Part shown: piece after piece, positions 1 through 50,500 of the stretch
Layout of the letters: the number at the start of each line of letters is the position of its first letter
How positions within the stretch are numbered: the stretch's first letter is position 1
Notes under the pieces: model-generated
Seen by the model: only the letters and a program-made list of their open reading frames with translations
What the model was told of the DNA's origin: nothing
Databases searched by the model: none
Program-made: the position numbers and the translations under genes
DNA from: Amoebophrya sp. A120
Lineage: Eukaryota; Protista; Dinoflagellata
Length of the DNA stretch: 64,000 bases
Direction: 5' to 3'
Assembly: GCA_905178155.1 (NCBI GenBank)
Contig: CAJINV010000002.1
Span: 565,493-629,492, forward strand

Positions 1-948
1 CGGGTCGATGTCGTTCTCCAGCAGATAGGCATTGGCGCCCTCCTCCAGCGCCGTCCCGGCGTCGTGCTCCTCGCAGTGACTCGAGACTGTTACTAGGTGG
101 GCCCCCGGCGTTTGGCGAAAAATATCTTTCTCCTCCAGCACTGCCATGCCGGTGGCCTTGTGCGTCAAAACCATGTCCGGCCCTCGATCAGAGCTCGTGT
201 TGATTACTAGAAGCGGAGGTAGTTGCTTTTGTTGTGCTGTCGCTACGACACTTTTCAGATCACGCATGACAATGTCTGCGTTTTTCTGGGACGGAATTCT
301 TGTATCGGTGAGAAGTTGCTCGAGGCCGGTCCCGCCTGCTGCTGCTTCTGCGATTTTTGTTACCTTTTTGCTCGGCAGGAGGATCGTCGACGTCGGCACA
401 ACTACTTCATGAAGATTCTCGCCCGCGTACCACTTCACTGCCATGTGCGTCACCATCCACTTCGCCGCTTGGTCGACGAGAGTCTGCCGCCCGCCGCCAA
501 GTATGTCCATCGACAATTTCGTTCCGCATGGGGTCGCGTCGCTCATGTGGGTCAGCAGAACACTTCGCGTTCCCGGGTCGGCAATTATCTGTGCCGCGAG
601 GGTTTCCCCGGCTTCTTTTGCAAGAAGTGATGCTTTATCAAAATGAGCATCTTCTCGCGGACCTCCAGTCAGAAACGGGTCTAGCGTTCTCGCCAATGTT
701 GCGCTGACCCCAGCCAGGTCCACTTGCTCTGGAGACGGTGAACGCTCGCGAGGACCTCCTGAATCGGTGGCAGGAGGAGGAGAACTGGGCTGCCCGTCAC
801 CGTCGTCGCCATCTACTACTAGTACGTCTTCCCCAGCGTGAAGCCCCCCGTCGTCCATCCACAATGCCCCGGATTCAATCGCGGCCAAGGCAGTGTCGGA
901 AACATTTGCGGCCGGTACCTCCGGCTCTGCGGCCCCAACGTCGGCACG
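1..948 (-). CDS. Partial gene of unknown function (ORF3 of the element); ~316-codon open exon running off the window, with probable upstream exons to ~1770
   Basis: Manual translation is stop-free from 948 to 1 (RADVGAAEPEVP...AAKWMVTHMAVKWYAGENLHEV...NAYLLENDIDP). Preceded by a TA-ended intron (949-1112). Upstream ORFs 1090-1395 and 1389-1619 are in different frames. Confidence 0.6.
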
Positions 949-2679
949 TATGCGTTACAAAAAATAGCCAGCAGAGATGCCTCCTCGAACAATCCTTTTC
1001 GTATTTTCATGACCAACATTTTGCACCTCCTTTGCGCTCGATCTGAAAGCACAATTCGCGGAGGGGAACATGCGCCCTTAAGGTGTTTGTCATGCGAATT
1101 TTGAAAAGGATAGGACAGGAGCAGTCATCACTGCCGGAACATTTGACACAAACATAAATTCCTCGCGAGGTTGGCAATCGTGGTTGCCGCTGGTTTCATT
1201 TGCGATGCTGCTGCTGCCCCAAAGATCGTCAACGGCTGCGAGCCCATCGAACGCGAAGTAGTCCCCTTGTGCCTCAGCAAGGTAGGCGTCCACTCCACGT
1301 AAAGCCATTCGGGGCGGAACGGGCGAACTGGTTACCTCTGAGAGCGATGTGTGGCGGCACGGCCTCAGATTGTCGTCGTCCGAAATTTTCAACACCAGGC
1401 CGGAGCAGCCGACTGCTTACACTGGTCACGCGGGGCCAGGAGGTCTAGTAGTGCCGACCGTTTTATTCGTTCTTGCAGGATGTGCGTTCGAAGAGAAACT
1501 TGGGACACAGTTATCTCTTCCATCACTTCACCGTCGGCGCCATCGTTGGGTGTTGGTTTGCCTTCGTCAACGAAATCGAGCGTGCGACAGCGCACTGGCG
1601 GTAAGTTCAAATTTTCCACAGAAGCGAAAAAAAACTGCTCTATGGATTTCGTCGTCTATGAAGAGTTGCTGCGCCGTGCCACGTTGTGGCCTCACTAGAC
1701 CGGAAAAGAACGAAGGACCGACCTCGTAGAGTCTCCTTCTCGTCGTTCTTGAGATGTTTGTCGTTATGCCTGTAAAGTCAGTTTATTGAGAAACGGCACA
1801 AGAAAGTGGAAGTGCCTACTTTCGTTTTTGAGGCTACTTTTGCACTTTGCTTGATCGAACGCTACTCATACTCAGCTCAATGGATCCTGAAAATTTTTGG
1901 TCGGTGTGACGACTTGCGCAATAATATGTCTTGCAGCTTGTTTTGCGTGTTACGCTCAAGGCAGCATGATCGAAGCGAGCTACTACATCAGAGTGGCACA
2001 TCTCGACATAAGGCAATCTGGATCGACATCTTCACGACGAGACACGACAGAGAGGGGCAACAGCGTGCTCCTCCTGCGCTCCACACTTACACTCAGCTCG
2101 AGCAACGATTTGACGTGTTTGCAATGCGCTCAATGAATAAGAACTAAGATGAACGAATGTAGCGACATCGTTCACAGACAATCCGAGATAGGATGCGATG
2201 GGAGGTGGCAATGTAAGAAGGAAAAAGGACACTATGTACGACAGGAAGACAAAAAGCGGAGGCAATCAATGCGCAAGCAAAGCCCACTACTGGCAGAAAC
2301 GAAAGGATGTCCGTAAAGGCCGAAAAACGAAATAAGCACAAAACAGCATAGGAGTCGGGAGCAGAGGCGGGTGTGAAGCAGGGACGCAATAAAGCCGCCG
2401 GGAAACAAAGAGCTGGAAAGCGAAATAAAGCGGCGGACTACAACATAGTGACTAAGAAAAGGCGGCGCGACTCATGGAGATAAACTCTACGACAGACGGA
2501 CGGAAAACCGAAAAAATGGAAGCTACTAGTCCGGACATCAAGGGGAGGAAGGAGTCGCACTTTCTTGAGATACAAGCTGCAAGCCGAGCACTTCGCCACA
2601 CCAAAAAGTGTAAATTTCGGAATTTTTGAAATTCGTTTGAAATGCTTAATTATTGCATTTAGCGCCGCGTGCTTCTGCG

Positions 2680-5600
2680 TTAATTGTTCTTGTGCATGAC
2701 AAACGCGATGTACCGGGCTGGGTGGCGACCACCTGCTTCGTTGCGGTCCTTGCGGTCCACCTTAGCCTCACCGTCGTCGTTCTTCTGCCGCTTGTTGCCA
2801 TCGAGCTCCTCCTCGATCTCATCAATGGACTTGTACGCGAAGCCCTTCTTTTTCCGCAACCGCTCCTCCGCCAAGTGGTACCACATGACCCAGTTGTGCT
2901 CCGAGAGGCAGACATCCTTGAACAACTGCGCCTGCTCATCGTACGACAACTTTTCGAACTCGCGCATGGTGAAACGGGACGTCTCGTACGACATGTGGTT
3001 GACCCACCACAACTTCTCATCCGGCATCAGCGACTCATATGCGAGCGCGGTGATATCCAAAGCGGAGTACAACGTGGCGTCCTTCAAATCGAACTGCACC
3101 TCACCGGTCTCGTCGCATATGAAAAAGCAAAACTTGCTCCGTCATTATTGCATTTGCGTTTCTACTACAGCTCGTTTTTAAATTGTCATGCGTTTTTAAA
3201 TTTTTAGAACCACAAATGCAATGATGACGAAGCACGTTTTGCAAGGGTATCGCAGGCGTTCAAGTCAATCGCGGAGGTGTAGAAGTCGCAGTCGGTCAAG
3301 AGCATGGCGTGGAAGTGGCAGTCTTTCCACATCGGCGGGTACCGGAAAGTAGACGCCGGAATCAGGACCTTCTCGATCGTGTGCTTTTGGTCGGCCTCCG
3401 TCGGTAACAGCGTGTTCAACTCTTTGGCCACCTCGGTGTCGGATTTCGGCATGGGGGCAACTGCGGCCAAATCGGTGTAGGAAACGACGCCGTTGTCGTA
3501 GTGGCAGATCTGGACCGGGCAGTTGCTGATGCAGTGATGCACCACGACCGGAATACCCTGATCCAGCCGCTGCTTGACCTTCATCATGTTGTTAACCCGG
3601 GCGGACAGGGCGCGGCGCATGGCCCAACTGGTCGGTCCGAAGTTCAAGCAAGCCAGCAGCTCCGCACCCCGCATACCGACGTTATCGGCCATCTTCGCCG
3701 GTCCTTGGTTGCGGAACTTAGTGGGCAAGGACATGCACAGCTCCGTATCGTAGATTTCCGGCGCGCGGAGCATGGAGGTCATCTTCTTCACGCCGGCTCG
3801 CAAAGTACCAGTACAGTGGTTCTCCACGCGCACAGCAAGGTCCAGGCGGGCGGACTGCACGTCGTCCTCGGTGATCATGTTCAGCGACTCTTCGGCGTCC
3901 GCGGGGAACACGGCGTACTCGATAGCGGAGGCCTTGAACGTGGGCACTCGCCCGTCGCGATCACCCTTCAAAAAGCGCTCTCTCTGCATGGAGAAAAACG
4001 AACCCGCGCAGTTGATCCGCTTGTCGTTCTGCACGTGACGTTCCGCATGCGGCTGTTCTTGTTGCATCTCGCACAACGGAGTGTTGGCTAACTTCTGAGC
4101 CACGTATTGTTTCACCGAGTCGATTTTGCCTTGGTTGAGGAGGATGGCCTGCGACCGCGAGAATTTGCCGGGTTCGTAGCTCAGCTGATCGAACGCACAA
4201 TCCAGCATCCCCTCCCACAAACCGAGCTCAGTCGGAAACTCCTCTTTTTGGGAGACGCAGAGGGTTTCGAAGAACCCATACTGCGGATCAGCCAACTCAA
4301 ACAAGTAGCGGCTAATGGTTTGAAACAGCTGCTTCTGACCCTCCAAAATTCCGACTTTGCCGTGCCGGCCAGAAGCCTGCTGGATGCAGTGCAGCGCGCG
4401 CTTCGCGATGGCGTACTTAGCCTGGGCCTGCTTGATTTGGATGAGCTCGCAGGTCGGAGCAGGACTGCCCGTTGTGAAGGGGTGCAACAACACGTCCGTC
4501 ATGCGCTCAGCAACGTCCTGCGGCAGCGGTTCACCAGGCCCGATTTTGACCAAGTTCATCAACATCTTGCACTTGGAGTGGCCGAATTCGGACATCTCGA
4601 TCACGCAGGTGGTCATGCCCGGCTTCAGCTCGGTCTGTATCAAGCGCTGCAACTCCCGCGGATCCGAGCCGAAATACGCGTCATCCTCCTCGTCGGACTC
4701 GAGGCCGTCATCGTCAGCGTCGGGATGGAGAGCGGCCTGCGCATTGGCGTTCACGACCAAGGGGCGCACTTCGTACAAGTACATCAAGAGCCGCCACTTC
4801 CACTGATCCAAGAGCAAGGCCGTGTACAAGTCGCCGCACCAGCGCGTGTCGACGCCGCCTTGGATGGGCAGACCTTTTTTTGATGAAGAAATCAATAGAT
4901 TTTAGGTGGTGGAAGGAGAAAAATTTGCATTTTTTGATGCCGCGACTCAGCAGAGGTTTCTAAGTGAAAACTTAGACCTCTCAATTTACCTCTATCTGAA
5001 CGCCAATTACTCAGTGTGATTAAGAGGTTTACTCCGAGGTTCATTGGGAGGTCTCTAGAGAGGTCCCCAAATGCCTTCCGCCGATGGTATGATGAAAAAC
5101 AAAGCATACCATCGTGAATCAATCAAAAATAACAACTTATACGTTCTTTCAGCATGTCGATCATGGTCAAGTTGTGGGTTGAGCGCCCGGCTTTGGCCTC
5201 CTGCATGCAGTACTCCATGAACGCCTTCTGCAAAAACGGGTTGTCCGGCATGTTTTCCAACGCGTTCAGCATCTTCTCCAGCAAGCGGACACGGGCGTCA
5301 AAAAGGTCACCCATGTTGGTGCGCTTCCCAAAGGGGCCTCTCATCAGCGCTTTAATAGCGCGCCGGATCTTCTCGATCCCCGTGTACTTGGACTTCGCCG
5401 TGTTACTGTCCCTGTGACAGGGGCCTGGGGTGAACGTGATGCACACCAGCTCGCACAACTGCTGCCAAGCAGCCATTTCCCACGATGCCTGATCGGTCAT
5501 GAGGTTGACAACAAGGTTGTCTCCCTCTTCCCAATCGGCGCCATCGTCGTCCTGCGCGACCCACTCAGCGAAACCTTCCGCACCCATGATGGCACACAAG

Positions 5601-6648
5601 TACTCGAGCGCTTTCTCGGCGGATTGGCGCGAGGCCTTCTTGTCTTTCGAGTCCTGCGTGGACATGGTCATCTTCTTGTCAGCCGCATTGATCTGCACGG
5701 GCCACGTGGTCATCTCGAGCGCTTCGCCACCCAAGAAAAGCGGATAATCTTCTTGATTGAAGGTCTGTTTTAAATTTTAGCTTTTGATATTTAGACTTCG
5801 ATAAATACATGACTTCATTAAAATTTGTCATGCTGTGATCAAAACAAAAGTAAAAAGTACGTTCACGAGGGTGGTGCTCCGTTTCCGGCGCTTAGTGTCA
5901 TCATGGGCCAAGGTGAAGAACGCATTGCGCCGGCGCTGCTCGGACGCCATGCCGGTAATGCGGAGCCAGCGGTCATCAAAAAGTCCACGCGAGCGAGACA
6001 TCATAGCCATGCAGCGACGCAGGATCCAGGCCTGTGCTCAGAAGTTGATGATCATATGAGATGACATACATCGCCACGCTCGCATCACAAATGAAATTCT
6101 AAAACTAACAACAGAGCTTCGTGGTACCAGTTGATGGCTTTCGGGCGCCAGGTTGACACGCTTCTTGCCGCTATCGACGACGGCGTCGATCTTGGCGGCC
6201 ACCGCGGTGATCAACGTGTCGACCTCGTTGCCCACCCAGACGTCCGGAAACTTGACCATGCCCATACCATTCTGGTCGAAAATCTTGCGCCAGTGCACGC
6301 GGTTCTCATTCTCGACGATGTCCCACGCAATGAAGGTTACCTGCGTTTTTAAAAGTATGAATATGAAAATTGGTGTGCTTCGAGCGCATGACGACAAGAA
6401 TAAAACGACTATCTGCATGACAAAAAAATCAATACCGCCTTCTGGACAGTGCGCGTCGCCGTGATGCGACCACAGTCGGAGATGCCGAGCTCGGCCAACG
6501 CATTGCGACACACTGCCACGCTGCGCTGGAAGTTCGTCGGCTGAGTGGTGTGCTGACGGAGATTGACACATCCTTCATTATCGGAGCGAGTAAGTGGATT
6601 GATAAAACGTTTTTGCGTGCCAGCGTTCATCGCTAGCTGCCACGACAT
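2680..6648 (-). CDS. hAT-like DDE transposase, ~1090 aa, 6 exons (6648-6436, 6340-6128, 6031-5861, 5764-5143, 4873-3250, 3112-2680)
   Basis: Four GT-AG introns plus one introner join the ORFs in frame. Motifs appear in hAT order: FFTLAHDDT (D1), NLMTDQAS (D2), TPGPCH (CxxH position), VDTRW (RW), AVRVENH (candidate E). A further terminal intron at ~2577-2713 is possible. Confidence 0.8.
3118..3249. mobile_element. Introner inside the transposase gene
   Basis: ~38-bp imperfect inverted repeat (GCAAAACTTGCTCCGTCATTATTGCATTTG... / ...CAAATGCAATGATGACGAAGCACGTTTTGC) and TSD TCGCA. Removing element plus 5 nt gives NACD|ETGEVQFDLK in frame. Confidence 0.9.
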
Positions 6649-6665
6649 TTTCACTCTTCCTACGG
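6648..6665 (-). promoter_or_regulatory. Leader motif CCGTAGGAAGAGTGAAAA directly upstream of the transposase ATG
   Basis: Near-identical to the motif at 9217-9235 upstream of ORF2. Confidence 0.6.
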
Positions 6666-7398
6666 GTTTTGACTGTGAGGGAACTGTTGCGTTTTTTTGT
6701 AGACAAACAAGTTAATTGACGAAAAGACTACACTACTTCCAACACACAAACAGGCACGCGTGGTTGCAGCGAACAAAATACCGATGGACTTCGCAGTACT
6801 AGGCGCAGGCACTTACTCTTAGTTTTTTCCTTTAAATTCAACATGAATCTTCTTCCGAGGAATTACACCAGACGGCTTCGAAGATTATTTCGTGTTTTTG
6901 CAGCTATGGCTTGATGTAACAAGCATTATCCCTCCTTCACTAACCGTAATTCCGCTTTATAGTCAACCGAATACTTGCTGCTTCAAATTAGATGCCTATT
7001 TTCAGCGCGGCTACGCTCAAATCATCATCAGACATTGCTCGTGAATTAGTATAGTACTAAAAAGCAATAGTCTGTAAAGAAAGTAGGAGAAGAAACGCTC
7101 CTAAAACCGAATGACTCTGCTGTGCAAATTTTTCGCAAACCCCTGTATTTCAATAGCTGGGATAAGGCTATCATCGATGTTGCTGCGATGCGGCTGTATC
7201 CTTTCATAAATTTTTTCAGAAGCGAAAGTATACTAGTGCTTTGTCCTCAATTATAGTTGTTCTTGCAGCTACAAATAATAGAACGATAAGGAGGAAGCAG
7301 TAGAAACAGCTTAAAACTCAATAAACTGGACCTAATACAACACTACAACTCAAATAGAGTAGTCGATTTTGATTTTCCAATTCGCGACGAAGCGCTAC

Positions 7399-9178
7399 TT
7401 ACAACTGCTTCGCCTTCTTCGCGGCTTTTCCTTTCGCCGGGGCGGCTTCGCGCTTCATCGGCTTCTTGTCCTCCACCTCCTCCTCCTTCTCCTCCTTCTT
7501 AGCGGCCTTCTTCTTAGGGGCGGCTTTCATAGACTTCGTAGTGGCCTCCACACCATCGTCCATGAGGGGCTGCGGGTCGGCCTTCTGGTCCTTCTTAGCA
7601 CCCTTCTTGCCGGTGCCCTTCTTTTTCTTATCATCCTTTTCTTCCTTCTTCGCGTCGGAGTCCTTCTTTTTGTCATCGGACTCATCGGGGGAGTTGTCCT
7701 TCATCTCCGCGTCACCGTCGGTCTTGGGGGACAAGTTCGCCACCACAGACATGACGTCCTGCATGTCGTTCTCGGTCAAGTTCGCGTAGTCCACCTTGCC
7801 AGCAGTCGCCTTCATCTTGGCGATGATTTCCGCGGTCATGTACCCCTCCGGGACAGCGGATCCGGGGACCGGAGTGGCCAGGTTGGGGACGGCCTTGGCG
7901 GCGCCCTTAGAAGCGAAGAAGTCGTCCTGATATTTATGTTTTATATTGAGGCTCGAACAAGAAGACACGAACGAAAATACGACGCCAAATAAGTTGACTT
8001 ATCATTATAAAAAACCACGTAACTCAACTTGACTTGTAAAAATTTAAAAATCAGGCACCGATTCGCTCAGCTTCAAGGAGCCGACGTTCTTCTTCACGGT
8101 GCCCTTCTCGGCCTTGGGGACAAAACCGACCTTCTCCTCCTTCGCACCGATGCGGGTCTTGGCGTGGGGGTTGTTGGTGAAGGCGTTCAGCTGGTGCTTC
8201 TGTATATGATTTTAGTTGGTTACTTCTATGCTCTTCTACTACGCCACAAGTATGGAACATGTACATGAAACACGCATGACAATTTTAAAATTCAAACTTG
8301 TTCTACCTGGAAGTCGAACTTCAGCTCCGGCACGGCATCCTTGTCCTCATCTTCGGTCGCGGAAGCGGAGGCAGACTCCATGTCAGAACCGTCGTACGCG
8401 ATGCGCTTCGGTAACGACTTGTGAAACAACAACTTCTTCAGCACGTCCAAGTTACCCAAGGTGTCCAGCAGTTTGTCACCCATCGCGCGCGCATCCAGGT
8501 CGGGCGAAGCCGCATCCACGGTGGGGGCGAACGCGGTGATCTTCAGCTTCCACTCAGCGGCAGACATCTTTTCGGACAGCTCTTCGGCCGCAGCCTTCAG
8601 GGTGGGAGCGTTCTTCTTTTCCGGTGCCTGTTATTGATTTTAGGTGGTCGCTCAAAAAGAAGTCACGTTTGCATCTCAGCGTGACAAACTAGCATAATGA
8701 TGTGGTTCAAAACTTCTATAAAAAAGCAAACGCGACTATACCGCTTTCTTCACTCCCTTCCAGACCTGGTTCCAGAACTCGATCACGGCGGCCTGGTCCG
8801 GAAACTTGTGCCGGATGCTACGGGTGGCGGTGTTGCTGACGCAACCCAACAACTGCGCGGTGTTGTTGCAGCCAAGGTCGACGTAAACTGATTAGTTGTT
8901 TCAAGTGGAATTCGAAAATTTAGAAATCAGCATGAACATGTCATTTTCAATGGTGATATGCATGAAAAAAAAATTATCTTACAGACGGTCTCGCGGGGAA
9001 ACGGGCAGTCGGGCATGGCGCTGATGTAAGTCCACCCAGCCTCTTGGGCCTGCACCACCAACAAGATGGCCGACAGGCTGCTCACACCGTACTCCAGCTG
9101 GCTTGCGGAGAGACGCATCCCAGCAGCCAGACAATCCTGCAACTTTTGCAGGGCCACACTCTTGGCATTTTTGGACAT
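7399..9178 (-). CDS. Transposon accessory protein (ORF2), 443 aa, with a K/A/E-rich low-complexity basic C-terminal tail; exons 9178-8983, 8887-8742, 8627-8307, 8199-8059, 7926-7399
   Basis: Four GT-AG introns (95, 114, 107, 132 bp) join all exons in frame. Exons are GC3-rich. The tail includes AAPKKKAAKKEEK...AKGKAAKKAKQL. Confidence 0.85.
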
Positions 9179-9216
9179 TGCGAAGAACGTCGTTGTTGTT
9201 GTTTTTATCGCTCGTT

Positions 9217-9235
9217 TTTTCACTCTTCCCTACGG
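9217..9235 (-). promoter_or_regulatory. Leader motif CCGTAGGGAAGAGTGAAAA ~40 nt upstream of the ORF2 ATG
   Basis: Differs from the 6648-6665 motif by a single extra G. Confidence 0.6.
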
Positions 9236-10083
9236 TTGGAAATTAGAAAGCAGAATTGGCATGATCATGAAGATGGCATCATCAAATCCGTTATATGATA
9301 CGCAAAAAAAAACCTTTTTCTTATAAGCGGGTTCGCGATTGACATGAAGATGGACGCGTGGTAAGTCAGCACAAGACTAACGACACACAAAAGGGGGGGG
9401 ATCTTGAATGCGTGTTGTAATGTGGGGCAGTACAGGTCTTATTAGGTGTGAATCCTAAAGAGCTTAGTACTTTGGCCAGAATTGAACGTCATGCACTACC
9501 ATCCTGCTGTGGTGCAATTGAACAAACAAAAAAAACACAGACCCAGCCTATTCAACTCATGGCGCCCGTCGTTCTCAACTCGGTATTGCGCCGCTATTCT
9601 CTTCTTTTTCATCTCATTTGCATACATAAAAAAAGCTTTTTCTCGGTGGCCAGTGCTTCTGTATTCTGATGCTTCTGGTTTCGACTTAGGGTTTAGGCCT
9701 TCTGGATGACCACTCTTCACATCTATCTTTCAACCAAACAACAGGACACTCCACAGTCAGAGTAACAGCCTGCTACGTGACGGGGCACCAGGAGCGCGAA
9801 GTCAACCGGCACCTGGACAAGCTGCAAAAAACCCGCTTTTAGAAGGCTTATTCCGCCCTCTAATTTCACCTTAATCCATGACCAAACTAGTTACCTTATC
9901 TAGCTAGCTCAAATTGGAACGTTCATTTTGACTTGCATACTCTTCTCCAACTGCTACCACCACGGGAGACGGCACCTGTACGCGCGCACGCGACGCGCGA
10001 AACAACACCTAAACAGCACCTGATACTGCAATGTTTTTAATTTGAAATGGGGATTTTTGAATCGCGTTGACAATAATCACTCA

Positions 10084-10095
10084 GACGCTGCCATA
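10084..10095 (-). repeat. Right terminal inverted repeat of the large transposon (TATGGCAGCGTC on minus strand)
   Basis: 12/12 identical to 62161-62172, with weaker similarity continuing for ~15 bp (AGTGATTATTGTCA vs ACTGAAATCGTCA). Confidence 0.8.
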
Positions 10096-10112
10096 CATTT
10101 TTACATTTGATA

Positions 10113-13100
10113 TTGCACCTGATCGTACAACGTTTTCTCTTTTTGCTTCAAAACTTGGATTATCACCTGCAGGTATGTCGGAGTTTGGAAAGAACTTGTG
10201 ATGCGGGCTCGACAGTCATGAGGACGCCTCCAATCGCAGCGAAGCACGACAAGTTTTTGAGTCGCTAGGCGTTGCCCATTCTGCATGGCAAACTGCGTTT
10301 CTGCATGACAGTAACCACTCGGGGCGCTTGGATAACGTACATGACAGACTTGAGACTCATGCTGGCCGAGCATGACAAACCTGGCCTTCTGCCCGACCCA
10401 GACATATTTGCAATTGATATGGAGAATTTTCTGGTAGGGTTCGAGCCGCAAAGCAACGTATTGTTCCGTAATTTTGTCGTACTCTTGGTTCGCGGCTTTT
10501 GTCATAGAAGTTGAGGATGTAGTACAACCACCGCCGGGTTGATGCGACTGCATTATGTTGTTCGTGGCACCAACATCAGAAAGTGATGTTTTGGACCATG
10601 TTGAAGATGAAGTCGGAATCATTTGTGCTGCTGAAACACCACGACTACCAGCAACACCTGCAGATGACCTGTCCGAGCTGACGTTCCCAAAGGAAGACTC
10701 GTGTGTAGTGGTCGTGTTGCTGGAATTTGTGTTGGTATCCTGTGCAAAAGTATCGCAATCTTCGTAGTGATTGCAGGTATGCATCAGCATTACAAACTCC
10801 TTTCTTATGGTAAATCCGCATTACAAACTCCATTTCTCATCCTGGTTGAATTCGTACTAGTACGATGCTTTTGTTTTGCAATCCTTAGATGGTGGAATTT
10901 AGCAATGTGTTGAAAACTGCCCCTGCGGAGGTAGGCGGAGGGGGCTCGTCTAGCACTTCATCTTTGTTCTCCATCTCCGGGTGGTCGTGGTCGAAAATAG
11001 ATTCGTTTTTGCCCATAGTTGCAGAAGTTCCTGGATGCTGATTCCCCTGCAGCTTGATGTAGTTTTCTTCTTCTTCTTCTTCTTCTTCTTCTCTCACCGA
11101 CAGCACATTCATCTGTTTCAAGATCGGATCCACATCGTCCAGATCCTCCTCCTCGTTCACCGTGCCAATCGACGACATGAGCACAGATGGGTTCACCGCG
11201 GTTCTTTTGTGCTTCTTATTACTAGATGTTTGTTCCCCCGGAGCAGCTGCACCTCCGGGGTTGACTGAAATAGTTGACCCTGTGGAAGTTGTTGACAACA
11301 CGGAGGAATTAATGATCTTGTTTCTCGACGTAGACACGGCATTCAATCTCCCGTGTAGTTGCTGCTGTTGCTGCCCCCCGGAGGTTCCACGTGGGGCTGG
11401 GGAGTAAGTCGTGCGTTGTGGTTTATTTTTCAATTTTAAATTTTCATTTGTTTTCCCAGGAACGACACCTCCGCCACTCCCGCTGTTCAAATTCCGGGTG
11501 TTCACGTCTTGGTCATAGTAAAGCGAGTTACTGTTCGTGTGCTGCTGATGGCCATGTTGTTGCAGTCCTGATGAAGTAGTTCTATTCAGCCCGGATGATG
11601 ATGATCCCGATCGTCCGGCATGAAGATTTTTACTGTGCGGGGACACCAGAATGGAGCTCGGCGACGGAAAATTTTTCTCCTTCCAAACTAAGGTCCGCTC
11701 GAGACTGAGGTTCAGGAGGTGGAGCGCTCGGAGTTGAAACTCTGCTTCTTTCACTTCTAATTCCTCTTCGTCAACGTTCTGCAGCAAAACGTGCATCTTC
11801 GGCGCCTGGTCTGGGGGAATCGTGGGGGACTTGGCAGGAACACCAAGCTGGTTATTTTCCGGTGGCGGTGACAGAGCGTACCTGAGTTTATGCTTTTCCT
11901 TTCACTTCGTAGTTCATTCTGCGTTCCTTGCATTACAAACTAACCAAGCTTCTCGCAAAGTATACAAAAAGCCATCTCGTCAACCAAACTCATGATCAAG
12001 CAGAAGCAAGCCCTTCCATACCATATGTTCCACATCTCCTTCGACCCCTCCTTATCCGCCACTCCACCCACCGGTATGACCACTGTGCCCAGGATCTTTT
12101 GCTCACGCGTCTTATTTATGCATTGCAAAAGTATCACACTCGTATAAATGCATTACAAATTTCCTCAGCATGAGAAATTAAATTTGTAATGCGGATTTAC
12201 CTTGAGAAAAAAATTTGTAATGCATGATTGCAATACGAGTACGACTACGATACTTTTGCTCGCGCGTCTTATTTTCAAAAACCGTCAACTCAACCACCTG
12301 TTGATCAGACTTCGTGCATTCCTCGATGTCGCTGAGGTAATTCGACGGTGATGCTGCACACGAACTGCCCGTAGTACCGATATGAATTGCAAAAGCATCG
12401 TACTAGTAGTATAAATTGCATTACAAATTAGCTCAGCGTGAAAAATCAATCGGGTGCTCGCTTCTTCAGGCGAGCGAGTAACTGTTTAGCGTACTTTCTA
12501 TGTTCCTGCTTGTAAATAGCTGGTGAATAGTGTTTCAACTTATCACCACCGGAGCTTGATGAAACAAAACCCTTTTTAGCTGTGAGCCAGTCAAGCTCGG
12601 GGAGTTGCCTGGGAGAATGTCAGCCGGAGCCAGCAATCAGCCCTGGCTTCAGATGGGCGCAATACTACCTCCTCATCCGTACTGCACCTATCAACCTCCG
12701 CACAACCGCAAGGTCCTAAGCAAGCCGCCTCTGCTTGCCCTTCCTTGCGTCAGAACAGGCGCCAAAGAACTGGCAGGTCCTAAGCAAGACGCCTCTTCTT
12801 GCCCTTCCTGCCGACCCTACCTGAGCCTGAGCTCTGGCAGTGGTACGTAAACGCCACCAAGAGACACAGGAAAACACGGAGTTATGCCCTGCATCTCCCA
12901 GTTGCCCCCCTTTACCCTAGCCCTAACCCTTGAACCCTACTGCAGCGCCGCATTACTCGGCGCCCGACTACTTCGCAGCACTCCTGGATTGGTTGTAGGT
13001 CCATTTTTGCTTCATATTTGCGCCTTTTGATGTCCTGCGTCGCTCGTTAGTGACTCTTGACCCGAAAGTAGGAGGTGCGTCGGGGTCGGCATCTCCGAAA

Positions 13101-16217: not shown

Positions 16218-19200
16218 TCACTTCGGCGCCGTCCTTTTTTTCAATTCCTCATATCGCAAGGAAAAATCCCCCCTCCCCATATTGACGTGGTAGGCTTTCG
16301 AAAATTTGTGTTGCTGACTTGTGATCACAAATCGCGTCTGTCTTGCAAGACGGCAACTCCACCGGCTCCGCCGCATTATGCGGGCGGTTTATCTTCATGC
16401 TGTGGGGCCTACAGCACGGACGTTTTTCATGCTAAGCTCCTAGGTCAAAGCCTCTCTACTCAGGCTTGATATGGGTCTGCAGTCCTCTCCAGCAACACAA
16501 ATCTGATTTGTGTACTCAAATCCAGCATCAGAAACTTTGTTTTGATATGGGGAGGAGGGATTTTTCCTTTTGATACCTCATTCTCCGCTGTCAGCCGCAC
16601 ATTTTCCGCGTCCATTTCGCTATCCAGGGAAAAAAGTGTAACAGTTACACACTTGTTGGAGTTTCTGCATCACAAAGTTGCTCGACATGTTGGCAAAGAA
16701 AACCTGTGATGCGCAGACTGTATGTAAGGCAAAACACAAAGGAAAGGAGGCTGGCCCTGGCAAGCATTTCCTGCAGGAAAGAGGTTGTCTGTCTTGCTTG
16801 TCTTCCATCAGAGTGTGTAACTGTAACACTATTTTTCTCACGATATTCGCCTATCAAAGCGTACTGCTGATCCAACGTTTTGTACAAAGTTTGCAAGTCC
16901 GCCGTCCCGCCCGTCGCCGTGGAATTTATCGGTTTTTCCATGGTGGTTGCGTTCTGAATGGTGGTGGCGTTTAAGGACGTTGCGTTCATCAAGCTTGTAC
17001 TCGTGATCGCACTGGTATTGGTTCGGTCCTGCCCGCCCACCGCTGCGCCGGAGTCGTTGACATTCGACGAGCTTTTCCTCACTTCCGCCAACAACGCTTC
17101 CAACTTTTTGTTGCGCTGCCGCTCCAACTTTGTTAGCTCTTTCTCCTGCTGGAGGTCGTTTTTCAACCTGGTCGACTCGATCAGCGATCTGTCCTGCTGG
17201 GCCCGGGAGGCGGCGAGGTCGCGCTCCAGGTTGAAGCGACGCAGCTCGACCTCCTTCACCGCTTGGCCGGAAACCTTTTGTAAGAGTTGAAGTTGTGACA
17301 TCAAACTCAAGTACTTGTTACTTATACTAGATCCAACACTTCTCCCAAGTCGAGTCAAATTTACCTATACCGCTGCTGTTGTCTTCGTGCCATGTCAATG
17401 AGAAAACATTTTTAGAAGGTTGTTGCCAAGTTCAAACCTGAAACACATGATCCTCAAAATCAGTACGAAAATCTCCTGCTCAAACTCCCTTTCCCGCCTT
17501 AATTTCTCCTCCGCCTCCTGCGTCAATCCCTCCATATGGATTGCAAAAGTGTCTGGGTCTGGAAAGTTGGAGCGTGTAATGATGGTCCTGCATTCCTGTG
17601 AAATCTGTATTGCATGACCAACAAAAGTGGTACTTAGCCTCTCACGTCTTACAAAAACGCAGTTTCTCATGCGGAGTTCGTATGATAAAGCGATGTGCAG
17701 ACTTGTTATGCTTTCCTGCATGAGGAAGTGACTTCCTCTTGCACATTTTAGCATCACAAATTTCCAGACCCAGATGACATGTTTGCATTTGATACTCCAA
17801 CCGCTGGCACAAATCGCTCACCTGCTGTTTCAAGGCCACCACGTTCAAGCCCTCTTGCCTCGCGGTATGGCGTTCTCAACTGTTACATGCTCAACTGCAA
17901 TGATGCAAGAATGGCAAAAGTGCAAGGCGGAAGATTGCGCCTTTTGCATTACAACTTTGGCGCAGATTATAATGCTATCCGGTGCGACGTCGAGAACTTG
18001 TCATGCGAAGCAGCTTGACGTTGATCCTGTAGATGATACGCATTTATTCAATTTTGCATTACAAATCCATGCAACAGTTGAGAATGTAACGCTTGAGAAC
18101 CCCATATGCGGCGGACAGCGCGCGCTCCTCCGCGTCAATCAAGGCTTTGTTCCTAACGGAGTGGGTATCAGAGTGCACAACTGCTTCTCCTCCCCCTCAT
18201 TTGGAGAGCATGAACAGCAATACAAACGCCAACACATTCACTTGTGGCGCGTGTGCATGACAAATCTTCTATGCGCCGACTAGAACTGTTTGGGCTTCCA
18301 GAATTTGTCATGCCAACAGCGGCGCTACAGGGCTGCAACTGGATTTGGGATTTTGCATGGGTAGTTGTGCACTCTGATAGTAGTCGGACAGCTTCTTCGA
18401 CGATTCCTCCCGCTCGACGGTCAGTTGCTTTATCGTCTTCTCCTGCCGTTTATGCATTGCAAAAGCATCGTCCTAGTGGAAATTGCATTTACAATTTTTT
18501 CCAGAATGAAAAGTCCAATTTGTAATGCGGATTCGGGTAAAGTGGAAGTGGATGATTTGTCATGCATCGCTGCAATTACTACGAGTACGATACTTTTGCA
18601 GTGCATACCGTTGTGATTCTTCCACGATCTCCTTGTACAATTGGATCATGTCGTCCCGCTCTAATTCCGTTTTCTTCAGCTGCTGTGCGTAGGTTTGCTG
18701 CATCGAGTCCGACTTCGATTTTTCCGCGGAGAAGACTTCCCGATCCCTTTGTAAAACGGACAATTCTTCATTTAGAGTCGCGTTTTCCCGCGTCATCACC
18801 GACAAATCTTCCGCGTACAAATCTAAATCCCGTCGGTAGTTTAAGTTATCCGCCCGCTGTTGCTCCAAATTCTATTCTGAGTAAAAACATCCCCACCCCA
18901 AAGCTGTCATGCAAATCTGCATGCCAAAGAAGTGTCTCATACGAAACCACATGAGAAGCTTTTTCTAGTCGTGTTTTCGGCTTTGCGACGCTACAAATAG
19001 CATGACGCTCTAGATCTGTGATGCTGCTGAACTAGCCAAACAGGAAAACACTATGAGGACAAACTTGTCATGCGAAATAACCAAAGCTGGCTGATTTGTC
19101 TAGCAGATTTTCCATCTTGACTCAGATATGGGGACGTTTTTACCCAGGATAAATTCTCGTTGAGGTTCAAAATCCGCTCGCTCTGCTCGGAGAGTTGCTT

Positions 19201-22200
19201 CTCCCGGTCGGTTAACTGTTGGGAAGAGACGTCCAGTATCAACTGCAAATATGTCTGGGCCTGGAAGATTGCGAGACATTTGTCATGCATGTTTTGCATG
19301 ATCCATGGCTCCTGTAATGCATGGCCTAGCATCTTCACAGATTTTTTTTTTAGAGGGCTTCCTGATCATGCCTACTCCGCATGACAAATGCCCTTCCCCC
19401 GTAGCACAAACTGGACCCCTTTATTTGCTGGTCATGCAATAGCAATACAGATCTTTTTACAATCCACAGTTAGCATCACAAGTTCGCTTCCTTCCAGACA
19501 TCCAGGGGTATTTGCAATGCATATCCAGCTTCCGCCGCAACTCTTCGATTCCGTTCTGCAGCGCAGATTCCGCTTTGTTGGATTCTTCTAACTGCAATTC
19601 CAAGACCCGGTTTTCCTGCGCTTTCTCGTCCGCGATAGACTGCAGGCTGTCCCTCTCCTTGTCTAGCTCTTTGAGAGCGGATTGAAGTGATTGGATCGTG
19701 ATCTGCTTTTCCTCTAAAATCTCGTCCTTCTTCTCCTTTGTGGATAACATTTCCGACCGCGATTGCCGTTCGAAATCCAACACCCTCTGCGTCTCCTGTA
19801 GCTGCTGCACGAGCTGCTCCCGGGTGTGTTCCAAAGCCGTCATGAGAGACGTAAGCTGCGACTTTTCCGCCTCTAGGTTTACACATTTTTCCTTTAATTC
19901 ACTGTTCTTCGTGCTCAGCTCCTCATTTCCCTTCTCCAAAAACGTGTAGTCGGATTTCTTCGCTTCTGTGACCTTTTTATCCTGTGCAAAAGTATCGTAC
20001 TCGTAGTTGTAATCGCGATTCTGCAAAACAAATTTCGTTTTCAAGCTAAATCAGCATGACAAGTTCCATTTGCCATGCTGAGCTAATTTGTATTGCAATA
20101 CTACGAGTACGATACTTTTGCAATGCATACTTTTCCTTCTCTTTCAGCTCCTGCCGCAGTCGGTCCATTTCCTTCACGAAAACAATCCTCTCCTGCTATC
20201 AAAAGGAAAAATCCCCCCTCCCCATATCGAAAAGGAAATTTGTGATGCTGATTTGTGACCACAAAACAGCTTTGTCTTGCGTACAAGGCAAACGGCACCC
20301 ATGTGGCGTATTGTGCAGCGAGTCTGTCATGCGTTTTCGCATATGTTAGACGTGTTTCGCATGCTCAGTTGCTAGCCGGCTGCGTACCCAAATGGGCTTA
20401 GAATTTGCCGCCACGCTCTTGCTGCAATTCTGTACGCAAATCCAGCATCACAAATTTCCTTTTCGTTATGGAGAGAGGGTTTTTCCTTTTGATACCTGCT
20501 CAAACGCGTTCAACTTCGTCTCGGTCTGGTCCATCGTGAAGGACTGCAGTGACTTCGAAGACTTCAGTTCCTGCAGCTCCTTCTCGATCGTATCGCACTT
20601 CTCTTCCACGAGCTTCTTTTCCTTCTGTAACTCCGTCACCAACACCTCCAGCTTTTCGCTCGATTTTTTCTCGTTGGTGACGATAATCTCGGACTTTTCC
20701 TTCGTGAGAATCAAGTCCTGGTTTTGCTCCGCCAGGGACAGTATGGCCTGCAAAGGTATCGTACTCGTATAAATGCATCACAAATTTTCTTAGCATGAGA
20801 AATAAAATTTGTAATGCGAATTTATTTACCTTTTAAGAAAAAGATTTGTAATGCATGATTGCAATACGAGTGCGATACTTTTGCACAGGATAGACAGAAC
20901 TTCCTGTTGAATGGACGTCATCTCCTGGTTGAACTGCGCGACCTTGTCTAAGAGTTGCTGCTTTTCTAGCTTCAGTTCCTGCTGTAAAGATTCGTTGCGG
21001 GATAGAAGTTATGAATTGCAAAAGTATCGCACTCGTATCTTAAATGCATGACAAATTCTCTCAGCATGAGAAATAAAATTTGTATTGCGGATTTACCTTG
21101 AGAACAAAATTTGTAATGCATGATTGCAATACGAGTACGATACTTTTGCAAGTCATAAAAGTTTCTCGTTTTCGATCTTCAAAGAGGCGTTTTCCAGGTC
21201 CTGTTCCTTCCTAGATTTTATCAACTGCAAATACGTTGAAGAAACTTGTGATGCAAGTCTGCCTATGATTGGCGCACTGCAATACGCAGGCAAGCATGAC
21301 AAGTTCTGGAGCTGCTCCTATATGTTGCGCATTTCGCATGGCAAAGTGCGCCCTTGCGTGACAGGCAAGGGGATCTTTTCCTGCTCATGCATCACAGAGT
21401 TAAAGAGGCATGCCAGCCGAGCATGACAGTCTTGCATTCTTCCAGACCCAGACATATTTGCACTGCCTAGATTTCGAATGCTCAGAAGTGAGCCGGACGA
21501 TGTCGGATTCTTTACCTTTTATTGTTTTATGTTTCACAAGTATGGATGGTTGTCTTCGTCACGCAGACACCAACAGAGGTATGAGAGGGTGCTTGTCATC
21601 TTCATGCACCGGTGAAGCTCGCATAAAATCAATGAAAAAGCAAAACAAAGAATATCAAAAATCCTACTCATTTCGGTCCGCATGGCTTTTTCCAATTTCT
21701 CCTCAAGATCCGCCTTTTCTCTTTTCGACTCTTTCAGCTTTTCCACCCACGTGCTGCACTCGGTCTGCAATATCCAGGAAAAAAAGTGTGTAACTGTAAC
21801 TTTCCTGGAGGAACAGCATCACAAATTTGCTCTGCATGACAGAGAAAACCTCTCATGCGTGGCTTGTAAGGGAAAACACAAGCGAAAAGAGGACTTCATG
21901 ATGGTTGTCTGACATGACAGGCGTAACTCTGTTGCATGTTCTGCATGACAGAGTTAATAATACACCTACACACTTTTTCTCTTGCATATGCAAGCTCGTC
22001 CGTTCGGTCTCGAGGAGGGCGATGCGCTCCTGCGCGTCGTTGAGCAGGCGCTTGGCAGAAGCGTGGGAGGCCTGGTGTAGTTGTATTTGGTAAAATTAGC
22101 ATGAGAAAAAACGTTATTGAATGTAGATTTTTGCATGACAAGTTCATTTTCATCACTATCGCATGGAGTGCCTATTCCGCATTAGAAATGCCCTTCCCGC

Positions 22201-25200
22201 GTAGCAAAAATCGCATCCCCTTTGCTGCTCACGCAATACAGATTTTTTTGGAATCCGAATGCAGCATCACAAGTTGCATTCTTCCAGACCCAGACATTTT
22301 TACATTTGATATTGCACCTGATCGTACAACGTTTTCTCTTTTTGCTTCAAAACTTGGAGTATCACCTGCAGGTATGTCGGAGTTTGGAAAGAACTTGTGA
22401 TGCGGGCTCGACAGTCATGAGGACGCCTCCAATCGCAGCGAAGCACGACAAGTTTTTGAGTCGCTAGGCGTTGCCCATTCTGCATGGCAAACTGCGTTTC
22501 TGCATGACAGTAACCACTCGGGGCGCTTGGATAACGTACATGACAGACTTGAGACTCATGCTGGCCGAGCATGACAAACCTGGCCTTCTGCCCGACCCAG
22601 ACATATTTGCAATTGATATGGAGAATTTTCTGGTAGGGTTCGAGCCGCAAAGCAACGTATTGTTCCGTAATTTTGTCGTACTCTTGGTTCGCGGCTTTTG
22701 TCATAGAAGTTGAGGATGTAGTACAACCACCGCCGGGTATAGATTCGTTTTTGCCCATAGTTGCAGAAGTTCCTGGATGCTGATTCCCCTGCAGCTTGAT
22801 GTAGTTTTCTTCTTCTTCTTCTTCTTCTTCTTCTCTCACCGACAGCACATTCATCTGTTTCAAGATCGGATCCACATCGTCCAGATCCTCCTCCTCGTTC
22901 ACCGTGCCAATCGACGACATGAGCACAGATGGGTTCACCGCGGTTCTTTTGTGCTTCTTATTACTAGATGTTTGTTCCCCCGGAGCAGCTGCACCTCCGG
23001 GGTTGACTGAAATAGTTGACCCTGTGGAAGTTGTTGACAACACGGAGGAATTAATGATCTTGTTTCTCGACGTAGACACGGCATTCAATCTCCCGTGTAG
23101 TTGCTGCTGTTGCTGCCCCCCGGAGGTTCCACGTGGGGCTGGGGAGTAAGTCGTGCGTTGTGGTTTATTTTTCAATTTTAAATTTTCATTTGTTTTCCCA
23201 GGAACGACACCTCCGCCACTCCCGCTGTTCAAATTCCGCCACCTCCCGCTGTTCATTTTTGCATGACAAGTTCATTTTCATCACTATCGCATGGAGTAGT
23301 AAGTACTTTCAGCTCCATTTCCTCCGACTTCAGCGTTATCACACAGAAAAAAGTTTTATTGTTTGCAGTCGCGCATGACAAGCTTGCCAATCATGCATTT
23401 GCATGCTATGATTGCAACATAAATTTGTCACGCCGAAGACACAACAACTTTTTGCCCATCTGATAAGCGCAACCGCTTCCTCATCCCTTTTTCTCCTCGC
23501 CTCTAGCTCTGCCTGCTGCGACTTCTTCAGCTCTGATATCGCGGCCAACTGCTGCTCCAAATCGCCCCGTAAACTGCTCACCTCGTAATTCAACGAAGCA
23601 ATTTCGGCGTCCTTCGCTCCCAACTGGAGCAGTCTCTCTTCCAAATATTTTTGTAGCGACCCCTTTTCGTCCTTCAAATCGTGCAAAGATTGCATCAGCT
23701 CGGACACCTGGGACTGCATTTTCTCGCTCTGTTTCATGGTGGAAGACGCGGAAATCGAGGTCGAATGGTTCTGCAGTTTCCACTGCCGGAGCTGTTGCTC
23801 GGTTTCCTCTAATTATTGCAAGGAAAAATCCTCGCTCCCCATATTGCAAACGCATCCGTCTGAAAATTTGCGATGCAGATTTGTGGCCACAGATCGCGCC
23901 GGTCTTGCAGCAAGCCAAGCGCAGGCAGTCCGCCACGTTATGCAGGCGATTTGTAATGCCGTAGGGACTACATGGCAGCCGTGTACCATGCTAGGCGCCT
24001 ACACCAAAAGGGCCCTACCTAGGCTTGCGATCTGCGTGCAGTCCTCTACTGCAAGACAAATCGGATTTGTGTACGCAAATCCAGCATCAGAGATTTCCTT
24101 TTCGATATGGGGAGGGGGGATTTTTCCTTCTGATACTAATTCCGCCGTTTTTAAAGCCAGTTGCGTCCGGGTGTTCACCTTCTCCGCGTTGGACTGCGCT
24201 AAATCCGCGGTGATGCGCTCCACGAGTTGCTCCAGCTCCTGGACGCGGGCGTCCGTTATCGTATTTAAAAACGCCCTCACCGCGCAGTTGTAATGCAAAT
24301 CTGCATACTGAAAACGTTTCTTATGCGGAGCCCCATGGGAGCAAGCATTTTCTAGCCGTGTTTTGGAATTTGTCATTCTCCAATCAGCATGATATACTAA
24401 GTTCGTGATGCTGCTGAACAACCTCAAATAACAGCACACTACGAGTCCAAATTTGTCATGCCAAACAGGCAAAACTTGTGGATTTGTCTAGCCGATTCCC
24501 CATCTTGACTCTGGGGTGGGGACGTTTTTACATAGGATATCCGTGTTCAGAGACCCGTCGTCGAAGGGGGATTTCAGGGCGGCCTGATAGATCGTGGTGT
24601 TCTTGGGCAACTTCAACTTCTACAACAAAGATATTATCAATCACATCTTGTTCTCAATCATAATTCCAGTATCATTTTCGTGCACGACCTTGACATTACC
24701 AACACGATGGCTGCCTCTTCTAGGAGCAGAGAAACACGGTTTAAAAATACGTCCAGCCGCAGCTGCACGACAGTGAACTGGCTTTTCACGCTGGACAGCT
24801 CCTCCTGGGTGGTCTTCAGTTCGTCTTCTTTCTGCTTCTTTTGGTTTCGCATCTCCCCCATTTCCACTTTGAGCTCCGCCAGTTCGTTGTTGCAGGACAC
24901 AAATTGTGCGTGCTTTTCCATTATGCGCTGAAAATATGTTCGGGTCGGGAAAGAACCTGTGATGCTGTGACTTGCGTATGATTGAAGCCCTTGCAATGGC
25001 AGCCAAGCATGACAAGTTTTTGGGACCACGCCTGCTGATGCCTAGCACGCATTACAAATTGCCTTTTTGCATGACAAAGGAAGCTCCTCTTTTACTACAC
25101 CTGCAATACAGAAGATTTTCCAGGAATGCAAGACACGCATTACAAGTTCCACTTTATTTCAAGACCCAGACGTATTTGCATTTGATATCCATCACCGAGT

Positions 25201-47500: not shown

Positions 47501-50500
47501 GATACTTTTGCACTGGATACCGGTTCCGTCTTGTCTAGGAAGTTGTTCACGTACGTTTCGAACTTTATCTTATCATCGGCGTTATGAGAGTGCACAACTT
47601 CAACTCCCCCTCCCCCTCATTTGTATGGCATGAACAGCAACACAGGCAACAGCAGAAAAGGGACTTTCGCATGACGAATCTGCATGCGGATTGTAGTTGT
47701 ATTATTTGAGGTTCCAATTCCAAAATTTGTCATGCTAACAGTGCTTACGAGCAAGTGCAAGGTGTGACATTGGTATTTTGCATTACAAATGAGGGGGAGG
47801 GGGAGTTCTTGTGCAGTCTCATATGCGTCCAACGAGTTGTAGTATGTCTTGATTTCGTCGTATGAAATGTAAAAATGTCTGGGTCTGGAAGGATCCAAGG
47901 TTTGTCATGCACATTTTGCATGACTCCTGATGTCTGTGATGCATGCCCTAGCATCACAGATTTTGTGAGGGCTTCCTGCTGCCTATACCGCATGACAAAT
48001 GCTCTTTCCGTGTAGCAAAATTTGGACTCTCTTTGCTGCTCATGCAATACAGATTTTTTTAGAATCCAAATGCAGCATCACAAGTTCCAACTTTCCAGAC
48101 CCAGACATTTTTGCAATCCATACGTCGTTGGTGTCGATTGCGCCATGGATTCCAGTTTCCGGGACTTTCCCCAAGTGCAAGTCGTCCGTCAAATGGTCCT
48201 TGCCAAACACATATCCTGTGCAAAAGTATCGTACTCGTATTGCAGTCGTGCATTACAAATCATCTTGCCAAGGCAGATTCGAATTACAAATTTTATTTCT
48301 CACACTGAGGAAATAATTTGTAATGCATTTATACGAGTACGATACTTTTGCAATGCATAACACACGCAGCGTTGCCTCCTGAGAAAAAACGTACCCGCGG
48401 CGTCAAAACCTCAAGACTGATGAAACTCGGCAAACTAAACGAGTCAAGGAGCAGCCAAAGTTGCACCTTCCACTGACTTCGCGGGCCATGTTGCATGACA
48501 AAGTTTGGCTTGCGCCAGAATTTTCCCTCGTATTCATCTCGACGCGGATGGCAGCTTCACATCATAAAAAATCTACCTGTTCCTCTATGCGGATGAGTTC
48601 AACATGACAACTTCCAAAACGCCATGACAAAGTGCCTCTCCGACAGAGCCAATGCCAAAAGAAATATTTATATACTTTACTTCCCCTGCTCTTCGGGGCA
48701 ATCATTATCCCAGATTTGCATCACAAGTACGGCCGCGCGGGTACGTTTTAACACAGGATATGGGGGGCCCAGCAGGTTGGCGACAGGAGCAGGCGTAGCT
48801 GCGTCGACTACAGGATCCAACCCATCGCTATCTTTAGTTGCGCGCACGAAATAGTGGTCTTCCAGTACCTTATTCAGGTCGACGTGACCTTTGCCGGTGG
48901 CCTCGTGTTCTATCAACTGCAAAAATGTCTGAGACTGGAAGATTGCCAGGTTTGTCATGTATATTTTGAATGATCCATGATGTCTGTGATGCATGCCCTA
49001 GCATCACAGATTTCTAGAGGACTTTGTGATGCCTCTACCGCATGAGAAATGCCCTTTCCGCGTAGCACAAACTGGAGTCCTCTTGCTGATCATGTTGCAA
49101 TACAAACTTTTTTAGAAAAATCCAGAGACAGCATTACAAGTTTAGAATCTTCCAGACCCAGACACTTTTGCATTTGATATGTTCCGACCCTTGGTGATTC
49201 CAGCGCTCCCCGATGCTGCCCAAGTCGAATTTTTTGCCCTCAACTATGGCATTCTCAAAAGTTACATTCAGAGCTGTTACATGGATTTGTAATGCAAGAA
49301 CAGCAACAGCGAAAGTGGCAATATTGCAGCTTTCGCATCACAGACTTTCCACAGATCATCATGCTGCTTAGCCCTTCGAAAATTTGTCATACTAAGCACC
49401 TTGATCAAGTGGAGGCTGATGGCAATTTTGCATGACAAATCCGCGTAACAGTTGAAAATGTAACAGTTGAGAACGCCATATCGACGTCAGAGTTCTCCGC
49501 GTCTTCCAGATATTTGTTGACGAAGGCCTCCAGAATGTCCTGCTTGTCCGCCCCGGTGTGCTTACCACTCGGGTCCGGATTATGCATTGCAAATATTTCA
49601 TTTTCATCCGGGTCTGGAAGGATGCGAACTTGTCATGCTACGTCTGAACCGTGCAAAATAAAATCTGTGTTGCATGATCAACAGCAAACATTGTCCACTT
49701 TTGACCAAGTTCAGACTGAGTTTCTCATGGACAGGGGGCACGATACGGATCTCACAGAATTTTTCATGCTAGGTCCACCTGCATAATTCGTTCCAGACCT
49801 CATGCGTGGTCATCATGGAATAAAACCTGCATGACAACTGTCATCTGCATTCTTCCACACCCAGACATATTTGCAGTGGATACGGGTGCTGTCCCAGCCA
49901 CTCGTAGTGCTCTATCCTCTTCAAACACGCTAGCGCGTCAGAGTTATTTTTGTCTCTATATAAACTATGAGGTGATCGCTTTTTTGTGATACGGCTTTGT
50001 CGCCAAGCACGAAGATGACCACAGTTCACCTAAGAACTGTAGTCCAAGCTTGATGTCATGCGGATTTCGCACAGCTTCTTGATTTGTGAAGCACGACATG
50101 CACAAGCACAACTACAACCCCCATCTTCACATTGACTCTGGAGTGGAGACGTCTTTGAACAGGATACACTTCTGGATGTCGTCATATGGGATTCTCAAAT
50201 GTTGCATTCTCAACTGCTACATGATTTGTCATGCAAAATGAGCGTCAACATTTTGTTCCACACAGTCAAGCTGCTTCGCATGACAGATATAGAGAAAGGC
50301 TAAACAGCGACTACTTCTGTGCGGTATTCGTCATGCTACAGGTGCATCAGCCTCCCCTCTTTGACTTTTGCCATTCTTGCATTACAAATTCATGTAAAAG
50401 TTGAGAATGTAACAGTTGAGAACTCCAGCATACGTCATTGCTGTCGATGATCTTGTTGTTTTTCGGGCTCGATTCGTGCGTCCAGAAGTCGTCGTATTTT

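Follow-up and report, generated by a model that had tools for sequence, protein, structure and literature searches.

What generated the non-canonical introns of Amoebophrya, which number in the tens of thousands? The question becomes directly testable at the locus described here, a 64,000-nt stretch of the Amoebophrya sp. A120 genome (the window) that carries, at its left, a transposon with an introner-type end; this transposon supplies a named enzyme family, a search profile, a donor sequence and a prediction of what its left end looks like. In the genome paper, A120 introners are described as having TAT-N7-AAA ends and 3-5-nt direct repeats, putative transposases are reported in A25 with none in A120, and general transposase mobilization is ruled out (PMC7789003); because A120 was thus reported without a transposase and that route was set aside, a hAT-like transposase gene in this genome matters. 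A later survey gives the superfamily as 'Unknown' in 54 of 56 A120 rows (of 58), with one Ginger, one Mutator and no hAT (PMC12130899). Searches of open-access literature turned up no publication that connects a transposase of this kind with Amoebophrya introners.

Introners of the window follow a common terminal rule. In a scan for inverted-repeat pairs with a 5-bp duplication that imposed no TAT requirement, 33 of 34 pairs start with TAT, bearing out the TAT rule of the original prediction. Among 65 TAT..ATA pairs with a terminal match of at least 17/24, 33 possess an exact 5-bp duplication and 32 none, and no duplications of 4, 6, 7 or 8 bp were found; ten shuffles gave 0-2 such elements versus 40 found. 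The element set used below (n = 55) comprises 39 elements with an exact duplication, one likely chance pair having been dropped, and 16 hand-added elements with imperfect duplications. Their 110 ends represent 65 distinct 12-mers, and 87 of the 110 read TAT-N7-AAA. When 62161-62467 and 61787-62060 are cut out, each together with one duplication, a single frame of the six is free of stops, and a G[TC]..AG register is possible in only 3 of the 39 elements; from this restoration of the frame and the scarcity of such registers we infer that the introners are non-canonical introns. A stop-free test across the 39 elements did not separate the cut lengths (34, 33, 31 and 30 of 39). The sequence TGCATGACAAA is repeated at many sites of the window (e.g. 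6414, 2691, 15456, 47062 and 62201), both in introners belonging to several families and in the GT-AG introns of the transposon, and may be a splicing or protein-binding signal.

The transposon end lies at 10095. Its terminal 12-mer (10084..10095, minus strand) reads GACGCTGCCATA as given and TATGGCAGCGTC on the minus strand, and its reverse complement is identical at 12 of 12 positions to 62161-62172, the start of a 307-bp introner, either 12-mer occurring once in the window. The probability that a fixed breakpoint coincides with any of the 65 distinct 12-mers from the 110 introner ends is approximately 4e-6, or 9e-6 allowing two offsets, such that the proposed terminal identity holds with a chance expectation near 1e-5. 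Over the first 30 bases likeness to introner 62161 drops to 19/30, at both ends of 62161-62467. The position of the breakpoint is fixed without this match, since the paralogous family-B introner runs uninterrupted across CAGA|CATTT; 22170-22311 corresponds to the right 142 bp of that introner, confirming the independent boundary originally proposed, and 10091-10539 is 99.6% identical to 22290-22738. What remains of the interrupted family-B introner, its final 17 bp, follows at 10096..10112 (plus strand), of which CATTT (10096-10100) represents the one visible copy of the predicted 5-bp duplication.

The transposon end lacks AAA at positions 11-13 and reads TATGG-N5-TC. This pattern was found at both ends of 4 of the 55 elements, as well as at two more single ends, with an enrichment (12 vs 4.75) that is partly circular, the pattern having been drawn from these same sequences. 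The elements in question are the 307-bp introner at 62161..62467, which has an exact duplication, AGTTG, and whose removal with one duplication restores the host frame, and those at 60324..60644, 49245..49480 and 17866..18106, whose 5-bp duplications match at 3/5, 4/5 and 4/5 positions, respectively. The link between transposon and introners is consequently strong for one subgroup, and for the rest runs only through TAT and the 5-bp duplication.

Assembled genomic contigs from two runs, which represent one sample, possibly the window's own, and are not independent, show the transposon end to be shared with other sites. The end region 9877..10095 (minus strand) is common to two other genomic ends that are 94-100% alike and both depart at 10095. 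A single shared contig of depth 78.5 spans 9938-10051 and then divides into three paths: a 103-bp junction contig, with 74 letters left of the join and 29 right, and contigs of 925 and 523 bp that in both runs align to 10059-10095 and depart exactly at 10095, with at least 255 unlike letters behind. As three paths reach 10095, at least three genomic ends of this type exist. When the flanks of the two other ends are blended into a 30-letter consensus, 15/30 positions agree with the left flank as predicted, which speaks neither for nor against that prediction. Eleven contigs per run align to the transposon end at 80% likeness, indicating that no abundant introner family derives from its sequence. 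Further left, 1-9921 is represented by two long contigs of depth 23.5-24 with zero differences, and since this depth equals that of unique host sequence, the interior is single-copy at 88% likeness. One 411-bp contig of depth 54 matches both 9877-9967 and 4919..5112, the latter being part of the long fourth intron of the transposase gene (88% alike; one record inferred from length and depth). Given that this contig joins the end region to a piece of a transposase intron, the two other genomic ends are most simply read as deletion derivatives of a related element. The terminal 18-mer gave five metagenome matches, none of which extends, consistent with chance. Another contig, higher in depth, has just the 32 bp at 9892-9923 in common with the subterminal region. 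At 10014 and 10161 every aligned genomic contig differs from the window (C>G and T>G), likely reflecting assembly errors, and T>G at 10161 restores the exact duplication of introner 10161-10419.

The visible part of the TATGG-ended transposon occupies 2684..10095 (minus strand) and comprises its 5' end, gene 1 and the transposase gene, gene 2, the other end lying left of the window. Gene 1 (7399..9178, minus strand; exons 9178-8983, 8887-8742, 8627-8307, 8199-8059 and 7926-7399) encodes 443 aa, has four GT-AG introns and a GC3 of 0.82, and had no family match in library searches. Its exons are joined as modelled in RNA-like contigs, the RNA status of which was guessed, from one sample in which none is recorded as RNA; in the raw RNA run X8, 2 reads aligned, giving no evidence either way. 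The sequence CCGTAGG(G)AAGAGTGAAAA precedes both transposon genes, at 9235 and 6665 (minus strand), occurs nowhere else in the window, and is a possible trans-splice acceptor. Together, the 411-bp contig and this 5' motif of genes 1 and 2 support tying the transposase gene and the TATGG end to one another.

Gene 2 (2683..6630, minus strand; exons 6630-6436, 6340-6128, 6031-5861, 5764-5143, 4873-3250 and 3112-2683) has 1085 codons without a stop after splicing, and a GC3 of 0.79, whereas the host frame next to it has 0.54. Its exons are 99-100% identical to public proteins carrying the A120 label, the intron at 4874-5142 is confirmed by public fragment P0002, and the acceptor at 5764 coincides with a break in one RNA-like contig. 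Among 1.84 billion protein representatives searched, 9 matched, of which 8 are real: four proteins of full length, three fragments, and the fragment of gene 2 itself. A repeat protein, P0010 (E 1e-4), was dropped from all alignments as spurious, and a fifth full-length relative was obtained from a cluster. All five full-length relatives are labelled Amoebophrya AT5.2, and align to gene 2 with 26-29% identity over 880-1100 residues (E 1e-83 to 1e-106). Seven residues are invariant among all six sequences, namely D180 and D181 (5902-5897), D284 (5494), H310 (5416), R411 and W412 (4844-4839) and E678 (4043), all on the minus strand. A mutated third catalytic residue was considered and rejected, E678 being intact, as was an integrase-like DD39E reading, in which the corresponding glutamate, E324, 39 residues past D284, is kept in 0/5 full-length relatives. 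The protein searches thus yielded five full-length AT5.2 proteins and no second A120-labelled paralogue, with the qualification that such searches miss unannotated or masked paralogues. Longer and shorter protein searches yielded nothing further, metagenome, viral and prokaryote contigs contained no relatives, and no other copy of gene 2 was present at 88% likeness or above in the assembled genomic contigs.

No significant match came from Pfam, NCBIfam, PHROGs, PDB sequence or plasmid searches; gene 2 matched nothing in Pfam, NCBIfam or PDB sequences, and the Pfam hAT domain (PF05699) and BED finger matched neither its exons nor four full-length relatives. That libraries were missing this protein may explain why gene 2 went unreported. 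Weak Atlas leads connect it to a cluster with 25% PF05699 (0.76) and, in the same direction, to DUF659, ZBED1 and TNP RNase H (0.77-0.81). A single-sequence fold was of no use (pLDDT 32). The core of relative P0008 was modelled from ten alignment rows (pLDDT 52). This model had no Foldseek match at E<=0.001. Compared with 48,161 chains, it placed Hermes, a hAT transposase, first (Z 8.6, rmsd 4.8, 216 aligned residues; model 24-420 on chain 174-425), the next row having Z 6.7 with 52 aligned residues, and in a second structural comparison two further Hermes entries ranked top (Z 8.0 and 7.9; next 5.3), bearing in mind that a Z near 8 can reflect a common arrangement in helical proteins. By range, the first aspartate is in register with that of Hermes (model 24, chain 174). 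The histidine after the second aspartate (compare Hermes H268) lies in an HRxxN motif present in all 8 distinct sequences covering the site, and R411-W412 corresponds to the RW pair (compare Hermes W319) in 6/6; the third catalytic glutamate, falling in a low-confidence, unaligned part of the P0008 model, is placed by conservation only. Histidine and tryptophan at these places have been described for hAT and MULE enzymes (PMC4763223, PMC5225508). The cysteine of CxxH has no counterpart, with G, A or D found three residues before the histidine (G307 in gene 2). From the Hermes-like fold predicted for its relative, the gene 2 product is likely a hAT-type transposase. It is predicted to work like a hAT enzyme, but we stop short of classing it as a hAT member, given the missing C of CxxH and a transposon duplication whose second copy would lie outside the window.

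Upon closer inspection, gene 2 was found to contain two insertions. A degenerate TAT-type introner at 3118..3249, with ends TAT.. and TAC.., an inner inverted repeat matching at 27/30 and an exact duplication, TCGCA, lies within the gene, and public protein P0001 is joined across it and one duplication. The second, nested insertion (1..2683 in the window, likely ~13.7 kb in total) splits the last coding exon. P0001 joins at 2686-2683, the position of a genomic contig break, which identifies 1-2683 as a second insertion and 1-10095 as a composite. The region of more than 10 kb originally described thus does contain a DDE-type gene, though it is not one element, nor does it hold the whole transposase gene: coding stops at 2683, and the C-terminal 84 residues (321-404 of P0001), whose homologues form the C-terminal part of the AT5 proteins, are outside the window. 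From the contig break at 2654/2681, the nested insertion would have a 32-bp repeated end at 2652..2683 (minus strand) beginning TTAACGCAG. This end starts TTAAC and is preceded by GAACAA, a candidate 6-bp duplication; for A25, introner ends that start with TTA have been described. Where P0001 joins, it exceeds 3/5 relatives by two residues and 2/5 by one residue, which fits a retained 6-bp duplication. A unique contig of 13,716 bp extends 11,035 bp left of base 1. Open frames of the nested insertion, comprising one of 318+ codons (1..954, minus strand) and those at 1416-1093 and 1655-1392, have no family match. Gene 2 is split at 2683 in the DNA, and unspliced it meets a stop at the next codon; gene model P0001 joins across. 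RNA-like contigs provide no cover over 1-2502, and one reads 10 bases into the nested insertion, indicating that unspliced forms or DNA are also present. Activity of this copy of the transposon would require splicing to remove the nested insertion, as P0001 implies.

Right of the transposon, the host exon at 10420..10730 (minus strand) is unique to the locus and is contained in a spliced RNA-like contig of 2553 nt (depth 37.5), compared with RNA-like depths of at most 6.5 over 1-10008. This contig continues 2040 nt 3' of the exon and, with only 48 exon bases left between the exon and the insertion, supports the predicted continuation of the host gene beyond the transposon. The rest of the contig likely derives from exons on the far side, which suggests that the host gene splices out a nest of more than 21 kb; the same contig could equally have arisen as a chimera, or from an RNA sample that lacks the insertion. 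A copy of the pre-insertion locus is located at 22170..23254, with the empty site at 22294/22295 and a flanking 43-bp direct repeat (22127-22169 = 23255-23297). This 1085-bp copy of the 10096-11496 locus without 10540-10996 (22127-23297 with its repeats) lies inside another intron-like element and looks like a templated repair insertion. Also identified was a tandem duplication at 50791-57715 with a period of ~2.9 kb (50791-54912 vs 53568-57715, 88%), in which introners are duplicated and a 22-bp palindrome is present at 52772 and 55641.

Taken together, we consider it reasonably probable that 2684-10095 represents one side of an Amoebophrya-specific hAT-like transposon with two genes and a low copy number, that its transposase is a hAT-type enzyme from a lineage not described before, that its enzyme family moves the introners with TAT ends and 5-bp duplications, and that this copy is the partner of the minority TATGG-N5-TC group. 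The enzyme would bind TATGG-N5-TC ends, excise the transposon and insert it with a 5-bp stagger; short derivatives would land in exons and be removed from RNA together with one duplication, so becoming introns, and diverged paralogues, present or lost, might serve the TAT-N7-AAA families. Against this reading, only 4 of the 55 elements share the transposon's terminal pattern. Furthermore, the genome paper reports 99.98% predicted canonical introns for AT5 (PMC7789003) despite its five paralogues, so that possession of the enzyme family is not by itself sufficient to create such introns. The original prediction of an autonomous master that makes introns stands insofar as an introner-type end and a DDE transposase occur in one unit. 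It is not supported for an autonomous master of families A-H (letters as named there), given that the end lacks the AAA of 87/110 introner ends, that no high-copy family exists at 80% on the end, that the interior is single-copy and that gene 2 is split by the nested insertion; to call the transposon an active, autonomous master would be an overstatement. More tentatively, and as no more than one possible extension, two-gene hAT-like transposons of a previously undescribed lineage confined to Amoebophrya (TAT ends, 5 bp) may have made the tens of thousands of introners, with whole transposons (13.7 kb, more than 21 kb) being removed as giant introns through permissive end-pairing splicing, and transposase and introns sheltering each other.

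Another explanation involves a different moving enzyme. The TATGG end could be that of an element resembling IS3EU/GingerRoot or Ginger, its integrase-type transposase being encoded in the left part, which is outside the window, or elsewhere, with the hAT-like gene as cargo and integrase-type enzymes moving the introners. IS3EU elements are described with TAYGG..CCRTA ends (PMC12730594), GingerRoot elements have TA..TA ends, 100-150-bp repeats, sizes of 4-13 kb and captured genes (PMC6839031), and the survey of A120 introners assigns family 38 to Ginger, with a 5-bp duplication and TA/TA ends (PMC12130899). We regard this explanation as unlikely: the sole integrase-like reading in the visible part fails with E324, the fold match is to Hermes, IS3EU and GingerRoot are described as usually duplicating 6 bp, and the other genomic ends carry a piece of a gene 2 intron.

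The strong form of the original prediction, in which this transposon is the autonomous master of all introner families of the window through the shared TAT rule, appears to us less probable still. TAT ends and 5-bp duplications are indeed common to all families, the transposase gene itself harbours an introner, and neither another gene copy at 88% or above nor a second A120-labelled paralogue was found. However, unannotated or masked paralogues are invisible to protein searches, AT5 demonstrates that one genome can hold five diverged members, gene 2 is split, and positions 11-13 of the end differ from 87/110 introner ends. Finally, 10095 might be a rearrangement or assembly join with a coincidental 12-mer, as other rearrangements occur in the region (22170-23254, and the 457-bp gap in the paralogue), the 29 letters that the junction contig has right of the join fall short of the aligner's 31, and the genomic runs may stem from the window's own sample. 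With two other contigs diverging at the same base and a P of ~1e-5 for the terminal match, such a join is highly improbable.

The low-copy hAT-like transposon that we favour can be compared with several known systems. The introners of the window agree with A120 introner elements as described in PMC7789003 (TAT-N7-AAA ends, 3-5-nt repeats); the difference is that neither this paper nor the 56 A120 rows of PMC12130899 assign a hAT enzyme to A120, whereas gene 2 is hAT-like. With hAT elements, and Hermes in particular, the transposase has in common the D..D..H..RW..E order, a long helical insertion and the best structural match, but it lacks the C of CxxH and any Pfam hAT or BED match, is ~1170 aa long with a long C-terminal part, is 8-9% identical to Hermes, and is accompanied by a second gene and TAT ends. 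hAT elements usually make 8-bp duplications. Families of hAT with 5-, 6- and 7-bp duplications also exist (PMC12730594), the hAT5 lineage being one with 5 bp. IS3EU and GingerRoot resemble the transposon in the TAYGG end (one end only, TATGG at 10095), large size and more than one gene, and differ in that no integrase-type compact DDE was found in gene 2 and that the duplications of related short elements measure 5 bp instead of 6. Pairs of MITEs and autonomous elements, such as hAT-5 and the pandoravirus hAT-NA, follow the same logic with a terminal match of similar strength, their partners having been matched by 5-10 of 10 terminal bases (PMC6004678); what sets the present case apart is that the short elements act as non-canonical introns.
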